This document shows positions 47,490-52,016 of a DNA stretch of 64,000 nt, piece by piece (the first letter of the stretch is position 1; each line of letters opens with the position of its first letter). The notes beneath the pieces are model-generated. The model searched no databases. It was not told the origin of the DNA and was given only the letters and a program-made list of their open reading frames with translations. Both the position numbers and the translations under genes were made by a program. Origin of the DNA: an uncultured Candidatus Peribacteria bacterium (GTDB lineage Bacteria; Patescibacteriota; Gracilibacteria; UBA1369; UBA12473); assembly GCA_964473745.1 (NCBI GenBank), contig CAYYQE010000008.1:73-64072 (forward strand), read 5' to 3'.

Positions 47490-50400
47490 CTAAACAAGTT
47501 CCTCAACCGCCAACAACAATTTATCTTTAAGTTCAGGGTGTTTTCTAAGAATTTTCAAAATTCTTACTTCTATCTGGCGAATACGTTCCCTGCTTAATCC
47601 CCATCTACCCCCAATTTCGACAAGTGTTAAAACACTCTGTTTATCATTAAATCCAAACCGATTAACAAACACATCCCAAAATCTTTCTATATCTTTTGCT
47701 CCCACCTCATCCTCAATAATAACTCTTATTTCTTCAAGCAACATGCTCCGTTGCTCTCTTTGTTCAACTTCAACAAAACCATCATCAACCTCGCCCATTA
47801 AATCACCCCGACGGTTAGCATTTGCATCTTCGTCATTCATTGGAGCATCTAACTGGACCTCTCCACTAGCAGCGATACTAGCAAGATCTATAAGATCTTT
47901 TACTTCTTCAATTGGCATATCCAACATTTCCGCAAGATCTTCTGGGGTTGCCTGTCGATGGTTAGTCCTCAAAAACATACCTCGTGCTCTGTTTAATTTC
48001 TTAATATCTTGTTGAAGATGAATTGGAATTCGAACTGCACGATGGTGATTTTCGATATATCTAATTATAAATTGTCGAATCCACTGATTAGCATAAGTTG
48101 AAAGTCTAATCCCCCGATGAGGGTCAAACTTTTGAACCGCCCTTATAAGTCCCATATTTCCTTCTTGAATAAGATCAGGGAAAGGTAAATTAGTCCAGGT
48201 ATATTTCTTAGCAATCCAAACAACAAGACGCAAATTTCTGGTTATTAATTCATTGAGAGCCTCTTGATCACCAGCTTCCTTTCTGACACCTAACTCGTGC
48301 TCTTCTTCTCTAGTTAAAATGCTCGTAGCAGGCCCTAATTGAATAACACTTTGTTCACCCAAAATTAAACCCTGTGGCTCGCGCCGAGGCTTCACCTTTG
48401 GCTTTGGCTCAGGCTCCTCAACTTCAGCTAATAAATTTGTTGCTTTTTCATATAATTGGAAAGCATATTTATCAGTCAAAAAATCAGCTATCTCGGGTAG
48501 CAAAAGTCTACGATTAGGCAAAACCTCTGCTTCGACTATTAAAGACTGTAACTCTCCTCCAAGTAATTTTTCCTTAACTACCTCTAACACCCTTTCACTA
48601 ATAATTTGACTATAAGAAATACGGGCAATGACATGCAACACTCTTAATAAAACCTGGATAAGCATATCTCGTTGCCTAGGTCTTACTGATCTTTCTTCTA
48701 AAATTGCGTTAAATTCAGCTACATAAGTCTGAATTTGCTGCAAAGAAAACAAACTATAACGAACAACCAATTGTGGATTCGCTTCAGCCTCTTTTCTTAA
48801 TTGTCCGTCACCAGTTAAAAACTCAAACTTTTTCCACATTGTCGCTTCTGTCGTACGATGAGCAACCCATCCCTCAACGTGATCCCAACGCATCCCAAAA
48901 GCATCTCGCAATTTCTGACCCGCATGCTGATTAGCTAACTTTTGTTCTATCCGCCGAGGTGCATATTGACGGCAATGCCTAGCAGGCTTATCTAAATAAT
49001 CTTCGTAATCTCGAGGTTCAGGATAAGTCTTACCACAAGTGTCCGCCTCTAATTCAATAGCACTTAAAAAGAAAGCATTCTCACGCAATTCTGCTAAATT
49101 AACGGCACTTCTAGTTAGTTTTTCAGTCCACAAAGACGAACAACCCAGATTACTTAAAAACGCTCTCTTTAACCTCTGCGCTGGAGTTAAATTAGTAGGA
49201 TCTAAAAGTTCTTCTATGTCATCTATCTCTTCCAATTTTCCATAAAGCATTCCCGAAGTAACTTCCACCTGCCCCGCCTCCAAATAAGCAATTCTTTTTA
49301 AAACTCCCCTTGCTCGGGCGCGTGACCCACAACAAGCTTCCATATCAGCATATCCTAATCGATGAAATCTTAAACTCTCCCTAACTTGCCTCTTTAAATC
49401 ACACGAAGTATACAAAAACTTTAAGACTTCTTTAAGCTGCCTATTAACACTTCCTCGCCCCAGAGTCCCAGCTGATTCTAAAACAGTAGTTATTCTTTGT
49501 TGCTGAGCAGATGTTGCTTCCTCTAAAAGCGCCACATGTGCAACTCCTCGATAAGCAGTAGACCCTAACTGTTCATTTAACCGGACCGCTAAATTTTGAC
49601 CACTCAACCAAAACTCTTCCTCTGGCGTTAATTCGCGACGTTTTTGCTGCCGCCCTAAACGAGCCGCTAATTCTTCCCGAATTTTAATCGGCAAACTAAA
49701 AGCATTCATTAAATTAAATTGCACTGATGTAACACCATAACCTAACAATCGAAATACTCGACAATAATCAGCTAAAACATCTGGCTCACGATTTTCTAAA
49801 GACTCTGGCACAATTCCTGTTTCAAAACCAAACACCTCCCCCAATTCAACTAATCTCTTTTCTTGTGTTAATTTTCTCCAAGCCCTTTCCACGCCTCGAT
49901 CTCTTTGCTTTTGAGAAGCGTTAATCCAAGCCCATTGCCCTTCAAAAGAAACACCACGCGCTTCAATTTCCTGAATAATTTCTAAAGTTCGAGCTGTTCT
50001 ATATATATAGCCTGGCGGATCCTTCAACCCACGCTCTTCTGAAAACCTAGTAAACGCTGCTTCGTCCTCCGCCCTAACCTCTTCGGCCTTAACCTCCGCA
50101 GCCGATGGGCCAGGTGTCATTTTTGTTCTAATAACTTCCAAACTACTATCTAAAAGAGCCGGTTGTATTTTCCCAAAATGCTCTAACATAAACTCCGCTT
50201 TAGCAAGAACTGTAGAAGGACGAAGCCTTCTAATAGCCCTCTGTAAAGACCCAATTGGACAACCCAACTCTGCCAATCTCTCTCTGGCGGCTTGTTCTGC
50301 TGGAGCTATTGAAGCACTAAAACGAGGCATCTCCACAGGCAATGAAGGTGTTGGCGTTAGATCAGGTTCATTTTCAGCTAACACTTCTAACTGAGTTTGA

Positions 50401-52016
50401 ATTCGCTGATGACTCTTTCCTTTTATTTTTAGTGCTCGCGCCGCCCGTCGCAGATCTTTCCAACTATTTACATGCAAAAAATGAACGTAAAGTTCCCGTG
50501 GAGCACCTTCCTTTTCAAAAATAACAATTCTTTCTTCAATTCTTTTTACACTCGTTTGATTTGCCGCAAACAGTATTTGTCGCATATAAGTTGGTATATC
50601 TTCATTTTTAGCAAAAAACGCTACCTTATTCCGTAAACGCTGGAAAGACGCACTATCAGGGCCTCCCACAAAATGTGTCTGCTTCGGAGCAATAGTAATT
50701 CCATCTCGCAAAGTATGCTGAAGAGTTTCTCTTAAATATCTAGCTGAAAAAGCTTTACCAGGAGGGAAAGGATGCCCCAAAGCATTCTGTTCCACATAGG
50801 CTACTAATTCCGGTCGAGGCATATCATCAAAGTCCTCCGGAACTGCTGCTAATCTAAATATCGGCGGTGCCTTTTCCATATGCTCAATTGTTTTGCGCCT
50901 CACAAAAACTCGCCTCAAATTTGCACGAATGTGTTTTTTTGAATGATCTGTAATCTTTTCTAGCCGCTCTCTTGTTATCCAAATATCATAAATCTGTATT
51001 CCATATTCACTAAAATATTCTGTTTCTAAAAGCAAATGCTGCCAAACAAACACATAAGTATATCTCCCAGCAGAATCTTCAACTGGAATCGGAGTTGTAG
51101 TTCGTTGAATAGCATTATATAAATCTGCCTCTATTATCTGACGAACTCCATTTAAAACCGCTTCCCAATCATCCCCCTCACAATCAACCTCCTCGCTAGT
51201 CGGCACCCGCTTCAATTCCAAAGATTTCTGCAAAGCCTGGTGGACAACTTCTTCAGAAGGGGCCACACATTCCCCCTCCCGATCAGTGTGCGTTAAAACA
51301 GTACTTTTGATAACAATTTCTACCGCTCTCCCAAGCCCACCAAAAGCTCTTACAAATCTTCCATTATGATAACGGCATTCACTTTGCTGCGGGAGTGAGG
51401 TCCCAGTTTGATAAGTCCGATTATCAGCTGGAAGATCATTTTTTTCATTATAAGCTCGCCATAATTCCTCGGCTAGAGCTTTTCGCAAGGGCTCCTCTTC
51501 TGTCTCAGCAACTATAAATCTAAATCTCATTTGATGAACAACTTCATGATAACTATGTCCAATTCCTTCTAATAAATGTCTCAATTGTGCCGCTTCACGT
51601 CGAGCCCCATACTCTGGATGTTCGGCCAAAAAATCATCCAAAGTCCCAGGATGAAACACCGTACGGCCTTCTGCTTGCCGCGCTTCCCAATGACGACACT
51701 GAAAATGATATAACGCTAACAAAAATTGCAATTGGGCTTTAATCGCTTCAGCATACCTTTCCATTGCGATCGCTTCCTGTTCCTGCACTGGCTCAGGTGA
51801 AACCAAAGCCGCTTCCTTTATTTCATGAAGAGGTCCATCCCAAGCTCCTAAAATCATCTCCAAACTATCTGGCGTAGCATCAACTGCTAATTGATCTCGC
51901 GTAGCCAACATTACTGAAGGCAACGGGCTAGAAGCATCCACTATTTCAGAAGCAGCAGCTTTCTCTATAATTGTTTGCGCCGGAAAAACCCAAGAAGCCT
52001 CAAGACGATCATTCAT
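47490..52016 (-). CDS. Giant sigma-70 family protein: roughly 1233-aa unknown N-terminal extension + RpoD-like regions 1.2-4
   Basis: The C-terminal 275 aa (nt 47490..48317) carry [10 protein letters not shown]...[12 protein letters not shown] (1.2/2.1), [35 protein letters not shown] (2.2-2.4), region 3, and [18 protein letters not shown] (4.2). The preceding 1233 aa have no motif I recognise. Confidence 0.85.
   Translation of the reverse strand: [1508 protein letters not shown]

Follow-up and report, generated by a model that had tools for sequence, protein, structure and literature searches.

Sigma factors are among the best-studied bacterial proteins; their region 1.1 and non-conserved region are short, and the N-terminal parts of known sigma factors span roughly 100–400 amino acids (aa). 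Large fused extensions occur in planctomycetal and actinobacterial extracytoplasmic function (ECF) sigmas, as C-terminal TPR, WD40 or SnoaL-like domains. We analysed a 64,000-nucleotide (nt) stretch of an uncultured Candidatus Peribacteria bacterium (assembly GCA_964473745.1, contig CAYYQE010000008.1, positions 73 to 64,072; hereafter the window), which encodes a sigma-70-family protein of 1,508 aa whose sigma core stands behind an N-terminal extension of ~1,230 residues. An earlier note, made from the sequence alone, had singled out this gene for its size. Our analysis showed that the gene is real, that its core is complete and competent-looking, and that the extension is folded, conserved and modular. 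On balance we lean towards reading the protein as a functional, fast-evolving, lineage-specific and probably accessory sigma, the activity of which would be gated or targeted by its N-terminal module. In the Candidate Phyla Radiation (CPR), where genomes are tiny, recognizable transcription factors few and regulation an open question, the family to which it belongs is a concrete candidate regulator.

The gene and its parts lie as follows, with module boundaries drawn with module hidden Markov models (HMMs):

47490..52016, (-) strand: giant sigma-70-family gene, a single uninterrupted open reading frame (ORF) of 1,508 aa plus stop codon, with an ATG start
51267..52016, (-) strand: module N1, residues 1–250, predicted helical, in most family members (module HMM map, AlphaFold2)
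50337..51266, (-) strand: module N2, residues 251–560, predicted helical (module HMM map, AlphaFold2)
49617..50336, (-) strand: module C1, residues 561–800, with the family's most conserved block inside (alignments, HMM map, AlphaFold2)
49878..50045, (-) strand: C1 signature block, residues 658–713 (alignments A3 and A6)
48837..49616, (-) strand: module C2, residues 801–1060, predicted helical, with C1 the constant part of the family (module HMM map, AlphaFold2)
48417..48836, (-) strand: module C3, residues 1061–1200, predicted helical (module HMM map)
48327..48416, (-) strand: Pro/Lys-rich linker, residues 1201–1230, predicted disordered (predicted local distance difference test, pLDDT, < 50)
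48027..48326, (-) strand: sigma regions 1.2 and 2.1–2.4, residues 1231–1330, core-binding motif intact (Pfam, alignment to Protein Data Bank (PDB) sequences)
47727..48026, (-) strand: sigma region 3 including the 3.2 finger, residues 1331–1430 (Pfam, PDB alignment)
47493..47726, (-) strand: sigma region 4.1–4.2, residues 1431–1508, −35-recognition helix SRERIRQIE intact

In DNA of ~42% GC, an open frame of 1,508 codons far exceeds chance expectation, and GC content is even over the gene and its flanks. The ORF listing agreed with the single uninterrupted 1508-aa frame claimed in the earlier note, and the translation holds all the protein strings quoted there.

A complete sigma-70 core, with regions 2, 3 and 4 and a probable region 1.2, occupies residues ~1231–1508. 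Pfam matches over the cutoff were obtained for Sigma70_r2 (PF04542; residues 1257–1326, 63 bits against a cutoff of 24), Sigma70_r3 (PF04539; residues 1338–1382, 26.4 against 25.3) and Sigma70_r4 (PF04545; residues 1444–1492, 37.1 against 24.1). Region 1.2 (PF00140) gave a weak match at residues 1232–1252, under the cutoff (16.5 bits against 22), but the region 1.2 segment ending in NLRLVV aligned column for column with that of RpoD. Among PDB sequences, the core aligned to solved SigA/RpoD chains with a best E value of 2.7e-46 (query positions 8–273), and its region 3 aligned through to SigA 8x6f_E. The region 2.2 motif that binds RNA polymerase (RNAP; DLIQEGN.GL), the region 3.2 finger and the region 4.2 helix SRERIRQIE are all intact. 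The Pfam matches and the SigA/RpoD alignment thus bear out the claim that this is a genuine sigma-70-family core with regions 2–4.2 and, less firmly, region 1.2.

The core nevertheless departs from typical primary sigmas. In region 2.3/2.4 the window protein reads NQWIRQFII, against TWWIRQAIT in typical RpoDs (the longer stretch there is STYATWWIRQAITRA). The W433/W434 dyad and Q437/T440 of region 2.3–2.4 (E. coli numbering) are conserved in primary sigmas; the first Trp (W433) is Gln in the window protein, and the closest ortholog differs otherwise, with IWHVRAHII. Region 1.1 (PF03979) had no match in the whole protein or in three pieces of the extension at E ≤ 5. The NCBIfam equivalog models for RpoD were missed (NF006666, 183.9 against a cutoff of 572; NF004208, 183.3 against 555), as were RpoD_Cterm (TIGR02393, 177.7 against 354) and RpoS (TIGR02394, 196.2 against 378.7).

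Residues 1–1230 gave no match in Pfam (three sub-pieces at E ≤ 5 included), NCBIfam, PHROGs or PADLOC, and none among PDB sequences by single sequence or by family profile. The highest 19-residue Kyte–Doolittle mean in the protein was only 1.39, so it has no transmembrane-like segment. Strong internal repeats were sought and rejected: self-BLAST found none, and hhalign reached at best 68% probability between 120-aa windows and ≤13.5% at module level, although a few cross-matches between the HMM of C1 and that of C2 suggest at most a degenerate repeat. These searches agree with the earlier description of a ~1233-residue extension lacking a recognizable domain, transmembrane helix or repeat. Its exceptional size was likewise upheld at ~1,230 aa, and no description of such a giant sigma in Peregrinibacteria or CPR was found in the searchable literature; one CPR paper mentions only sigma-54.

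AlphaFold2 models of the two halves, built with family alignments, were entirely helical, with ~63 helices in sum. The model of residues 1–575 (m56c877adb54e) had a mean pLDDT of 86.6 and a predicted template modelling (pTM) score of 0.70, and that of residues 560–1230 (me5519dbc9e2c) a mean pLDDT of 81.2 and a pTM of 0.46. Confidence was low at residues 552–575, between modules after N2, and at 1199–1230 (pLDDT < 50), consistent with both stretches being flexible linkers. Foldseek returned nothing significant for the N half against the PDB (best E 0.45) or for the C half against the PDB (best E 1.3) or BFVD (best E 0.012, with a template modelling (TM) score < 0.1); the queries were whole half-models, so that domain-level structural relatives could be missed. 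The earlier note had suggested a built-in regulatory, scaffolding or anti-sigma-like module; neither an anti-sigma nor another known fold was detected in the extension by the sequence and Foldseek searches. The two confident models, unmatched in the PDB, suggest helical folds not seen before.

Three specific identities for the extension or its product were considered and rejected. An mTERF-like repeat protein had been suspected from the motifs L..LG.P, IE.RGVPF and L.KL.PVT, but Pfam gave no match at E ≤ 5, and the assignment was dropped because its sole support was a Foldseek match to 3n6s_A (E = 5, probability 0.06, TM 0.10–0.18). Cryptic duplicated sigma domains were excluded by hhalign, in which the five modules matched sigma regions 1.2–2, 3 and 4 at ≤13.5% probability. 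A normal-size sigma made from an internal start was discarded, as no in-frame start with a Shine–Dalgarno sequence lies near the linker.

Querying a word index with just the extension brought up an ortholog, P0001, a 1,515-aa protein that is 70% identical over 98% of the extension and aligns end to end with the window protein. It is labelled Candidatus Peregrinibacteria, which bears out the CPR origin guessed in the earlier note. Its exact sequence is on at least 24 contigs (ENA, JGI, Logan and NCBI assemblies), the longest, Ga0233441_1000002, of 715 kb, in the shared order ribonucleotide reductase (RNR), LTD protein, rny, giant sigma, orphan, groES and groEL; the exact window protein had no record in the contig index. 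The arrangement in the window is as the earlier note had it, with rny upstream and, downstream, a 249-aa acidic ORF of no family followed by groES and groEL; the LTD protein and RNR are further neighbours.

An HMMER search of 1.84 billion representatives yielded 24 clusters, 16 of them with E ≤ 1e-30, while a family-profile protein search gave P0001 alone. Six divergent members (P0003, P0005, P0006, P0007, P0010 and P0013; 1,195–1,520 aa) are 21–33% identical to the window extension in the family alignment (32% by phmmer for P0010), and all end in a sigma-70 core with Sigma70_r2, with or without r3/r4. Recurrence of this architecture in six distant relatives and in a 70% ortholog, itself on at least 24 contigs, identifies a true single gene, not one merged in assembly, and because the long form is kept in all of these the junction between extension and sigma must be ancient. 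The full-length order N1–N2–C1–C2–C3–sigma is shared by the window protein, P0001, P0003, P0005, P0006, P0007 and P0013, and in most members that have a sigma part C3 directly precedes its region 1.2.

The constant part of the family is C1–C2, present in all non-fragmentary members. Within C1 lies the signature F.EERGL..PP.Y...R.LEII.EIE.RGVPF..E.W.W.NA...QR...E..W, in which F658, P667, Y670, I684, E685, F691, W695, W697 and N699 are invariant or near-invariant; P667, I684, E685, F691, W695, W697 and N699 are invariant in both alignments A3 and A6, and Y670 nearly so. The window protein carries these family-defining features, the C1 signature and mapped modules C1–C2.

Other parts come and go. 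N2 is missing from P0008, P0011, P0012 and P0016, and P0009 (924 aa), a complete gene with a defined upstream neighbour, is without N1 and N2. Sigma regions 2–3 are lost in frame from P0008 (975 aa) and P0012 (827 aa), which keep a degenerate region-4-like tail (PLEKVRKIE where TRERIRQIE is expected), and regions 2–3 are degenerate in P0011. In P0008 (L007:5953-8880 (+), Ca. Peribacteria Ike-200m-53) and P0012, N1 and C1–C2 are kept, and P0008 also has C3; P0008, read in one frame, is the only family locus that the scan found in this metagenome-assembled genome. P0020 (818 aa) and P0023 (790 aa) are complete stand-alone proteins with no sigma part, made up of a partial N1, N2 and C1 (plus part of C2 in P0020). 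At their loci (L021:5949-9643 and L024:6001-9475) a ParB-like gene of 359–393 aa lies 23–57 nt downstream in both lineages; HTH_ParB matched the two at E = 2.7e-7 (over the Pfam cutoff) and 8e-4 (under it), and both contain GERRxR.

DNA scans located the family in Peregrinibacteria SI075_bin129, assembly GCA_018659585.1, in Peribacteria Ike-200m-53, CALREX01, both of them GTDB species genomes, and at four JGI/ENA metagenome loci, a lower bound because the peptide pattern was narrow; the exhaustive protein search is the better census. The same narrow pattern found no member on viral contigs in IMG/VR. A viral origin was rejected, as PHROGs matches only the core, IMG/VR yielded no loci and BFVD no neighbour; a conserved operon partner was rejected too, the context varying by lineage (ftsK/purL/purQ, purM/purQ or uvrB). 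The earlier note had allowed that the long form might be the standard, already-described one in its lineage: it does recur within one subclade of Peregrinibacteria/Peribacteria, yet seldom, and seems not to have been described. The family is new and restricted so far to Peregrinibacteria/Peribacteria, with an extension that can exist without a sigma.

Sequence identity between the window and the ortholog genome differs widely from gene to gene, being 96% for GroEL, 93% for RNase Y, 92% for GroES, 73% for a 783-aa ORF, 71% for both the LTD protein and the N-terminal part of RNR, 70% for the sigma extension, 53% for the sigma core and 39% for the acidic orphan. Nonsynonymous divergence (dN, NG86) was 0.24 in the N half of the extension, 0.15 in its C half and 0.37 in the core, and dN/dS (the ratio of nonsynonymous to synonymous divergence) was ~0.2 in both extension halves and the core, rough values because dS is near saturation. 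Both extension and core are under purifying selection. The window core is 40–42% identical to generic RpoDs of other phyla and 30–39% to cores of its own family; as a yardstick, two Bacillales RpoD cores are 95.5% identical. The core is therefore evolving at a much higher rate than is expected of a housekeeping sigma core, and in the closest pair the better-conserved part is the extension.

Several copies in the family are broken. One site is in the window gene itself:

50000..50010, (-) strand: C(TA)5 tract, codons 669–672 (sequence comparison with L014 and L015)

In L014 and L015, from assemblies SUTE22-1 and SCRA20-1 of a near-identical genome, the 'CT' at 50009-50010 (codons 669–670) is absent, and this deletion (L014:2336 and the L015 equivalent) splits the gene into 671-aa and 800-aa products. 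The window has the intact form, since its frame encodes PPGYIY, which fits the family-conserved PP.Y. In the P0004 lineage, of 40% identity and with the same groESL...rny neighbourhood, the frame shifts at an A7 run that corresponds to residue 711 (L016:3085-3100 and L017:3040-3055; GTT GAA AAA AAT GGC), with homology resuming directly in the −1 frame. The junction is identical in the two assemblies with readable DNA, and a third, from JGI, shares the 720-aa ORF and has its sigma as a separate ORF behind it. One additional A, or a slip, would restore GVEKKWRIQTRKA at the A7 site, and A_AAA_AAU is formally a slippery heptamer.

Programmed frameshifting found no support at either site and was rejected. 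Downstream RNA folds no better than shuffled sequence (z = −1.07, −0.93 and +0.17), with no structure found at the A7 run (z = −1.07), and the TA tract does not form a canonical slippery site. A further copy is disrupted by an IS30-type transposase (HTH_38 plus rve; L013:765-1757 (-)), the flanking fragments of which correspond to residues 531–736 and 744–1093.

The gap between rny and the giant sigma gene measures 38 nt (52017-52054 (-)), has no Shine–Dalgarno sequence and contains one promoter-like element:

52038..52046, (-) strand: extended −10-like element TGTTATAAT, 21 nt before the ATG, by consensus match only

The element and the missing Shine–Dalgarno sequence suggest that the gene has its own promoter and a short leader. 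Directly after the sigma stop codon, at 47453-47480 (-) and 33 nt ahead of the acidic orphan ORF, stands a perfect consensus sigma-70 promoter (TTGACA-16 nt-TATAAT, 12/12), and a 10/12 match (TTGACC-16-TATACT, 46623-46650) precedes groES. The perfect promoter shows that this genome uses canonical sigma-70 promoters, but not which sigma reads them.

The acidic orphan ORF itself (46671-47420 (-), 249 aa) has a net charge of −32, with 24 D/E within its first 80 residues, and had no match in Pfam, PHROG or PADLOC; it is syntenic in the sister genome and, at 39% identity, the fastest-evolving gene of the neighbourhood. At 55042-59370 (+) a 475-aa ORF with an ATP-cone and only partial ribonucleotide-reductase domains is followed by the 783-aa ORF, which has no Pfam match, and by cobA (corrinoid adenosyltransferase); this stretch may encode a B12-dependent RNR that is split or highly divergent. 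The whole window had no tRNA gene by ARAGORN and no Rfam family at the gathering threshold.

Because the sigma part evolves far faster than the housekeeping genes of the same genomes, the reading we prefer is that of a lineage-specific and probably accessory sigma. Its core regions would bind RNA polymerase through region 2.2 and are predicted to read the −35 element through region 4.2. Where region 1.1 normally lies stands a folded, all-helical domain of five modules and ~1,230 residues, presumably an autonomous functional unit, tethered to the core by the predicted disordered Pro/Lys linker. Such a module might, for example, keep the free sigma autoinhibited, serve as a dock for a partner, or attach to DNA or the chromosome.

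A number of points weigh against an accessory role or leave the module's action less well anchored. Neither the 64-kb window nor 341 kb of fetched loci yielded a second sigma gene, nor did the long contigs of P0001 among the 120 matches listed, and in this limited searchable DNA the giant sigma could be the only one; CPR genomes are small and have few sigma factors. The best matches of the core are primary sigmas (SigA/RpoD), the gene sits amid core housekeeping genes, and canonical TTGACA/TATAAT promoters adjoin it. The dN/dS values are rough for the reason given. Database and Foldseek searches gave no homology that ties the extension to any activity, and the ParB pairing belongs to distant stand-alone homologs, 18–19% identical to the window extension, with one of the two ParB-like matches under the Pfam cutoff.

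Much of this would fit a sole housekeeping primary sigma (RpoD) of the Peregrinibacteria clade, in which the N-terminal domain replaces region 1.1 and the non-conserved region and fast evolution is CPR biology, a serious possibility that we nonetheless doubt. It would account for SigA/RpoD as the best PDB and database matches, the presence of regions 2 to 4.2 and a probable region 1.2, the position between rny and groESL in two genomes, the lack of another sigma in the window or fetched loci, the local consensus promoters and the core dN/dS of ~0.2. The housekeeping status that the earlier note had implied is called into question by equivalog scores far under the cutoffs (184 against 572 for RpoD, 178 against 354 for RpoD_Cterm), by the lack of region 1.1 and by the loss of the first Trp of the dyad (W433 to Gln, with another dyad substitution in the ortholog). 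It also sits poorly with the rate, the core being 53% identical to that of the ortholog where GroEL is 96% and RNase Y 93%. Finally, the sigma seems dispensable in other lineages: sibling assemblies have the codon-669 frameshift, the lineage of 40% identity is frameshifted in at least three assemblies, one copy is disrupted by an insertion sequence (IS), and two representatives are without regions 2–3. Such frameshifts and disruptions are hard to square with an essential single-copy gene.

These losses also bear on the idea that the true functional unit is the extension, perhaps a helical scaffold on DNA or the chromosome, and that the sigma is a decaying or co-opted DNA-binding appendage, initiation being no longer the protein's main task; we judge this unlikely. 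C1–C2 is the only constant part of the family, regions 2–3 are lost in P0008 and P0012 and degenerate in P0011, P0020 and P0023 have no sigma at all, the extension outconserves the core in the closest pair, and the stand-alone homologs pair with ParB-like genes. Yet in the window protein purifying selection acts on an intact region 2.2 motif, 3.2 finger and region 4.2, and a complete core is kept in seven full-length lineages. Fast evolution and repeated inactivation raise the question of the selective regime on the sigma part. A related proposal keeps the sigma functional and casts the extension as a previously unknown DNA- or chromosome-associated helical machine that tethers or gates RNAP at chromosomal sites, its full-length and split forms perhaps toggled by the C(TA)5 and A7 frameshifts. 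We regard it as speculative and a shade less probable again; if true, an episymbiont of reduced genome would have a giant sigma subject to phase variation.

A conflict- or defence-associated sigma like MzaA of the MZA anti-phage system would explain rapid evolution, patchiness and frequent inactivation, and MzaA is indeed the second-best NCBIfam match (E = 6.4e-55) and the only PADLOC match (E = 9.8e-36), alongside fast core evolution and disruptions in several lineages. We consider it very unlikely, since only the sigma part of MzaA is matched (profile 469–704 of 726; 187.3 bits, cutoff 800), housekeeping genes flank the window gene, the surroundings change from lineage to lineage, and the narrow-pattern scan found no relative on viral contigs.

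Least probable of all, to the point of being negligible, is a frameshift-masked fusion, in which an error of assembly or sequencing merged two genes: a 2-nt indel within the gene does lead to two ORF calls in two assemblies of a near-identical genome, but that indel lies at codon 669, inside the extension and away from its junction with the sigma, the window frame encodes the family-conserved PP.Y motif, P0002 covers residues 709–1508 in independent assemblies, and the long ORF is kept in P0001 (at least 24 contigs) and six distant members.

The accessory sigma that we favour can be set beside several described systems. It has the same ordered regions 2.1–2.4, 3.0–3.2 and 4.1–4.2, behind a probable region 1.2, as the group 1/2 sigmas RpoD/SigA, RpoS and HrdB, and its core aligns to solved SigA/RpoD chains at E ~1e-46 to 1e-36 with DLIQEGN.GL and RERIRQIE intact. 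Unlike them, it is without region 1.1 and has a predicted structured extension of ~1,230 aa instead, its W433 is replaced, it scores far under all equivalog cutoffs, and its core evolves much faster than housekeeping genes of the same genomes.

MzaA (NF041931, PDLC02203) likewise has a sigma-70 core behind a large N-terminal region of unknown function. The N-terminal region of the window protein is unrelated to it and ~2.7 times longer; only the sigma portion matches, the PADLOC match to PDLC02203 being confined to profile positions 412–659 of 683. None of the partner genes MzaB–E is among the neighbours rny, orphan, groES, groEL, LTD protein and RNR, of which the PADLOC scan covered the orphan. 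The phage family phrog_351 (profile length 928, sigma part 482–726) also has a long N-terminal part ahead of a sigma-70 core, and its match to the window protein (E = 1.2e-57) is confined to the core. The mTERF-type helical repeat nucleic-acid binders, too, are all-helical and bear a superficial motif resemblance to the extension.

ECF fusions share with the window protein the concept of a sigma with a built-in regulatory domain in place of a separate anti-sigma factor. They belong to group 4, have only regions 2 and 4 and carry C-terminal extensions of known folds, whereas the window protein has a group 1/2-type core with region 3 and a probable region 1.2 and an N-terminal extension of unknown fold. 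As far as sequence can tell, the likeness to MzaA, phrog_351 and the ECF fusions appears to be conceptual only, the appended domain being unrelated to any of them. Next to these systems, a folded N-terminal domain four times the size of the sigma core would be a new way to build regulation or targeting into an initiation factor.

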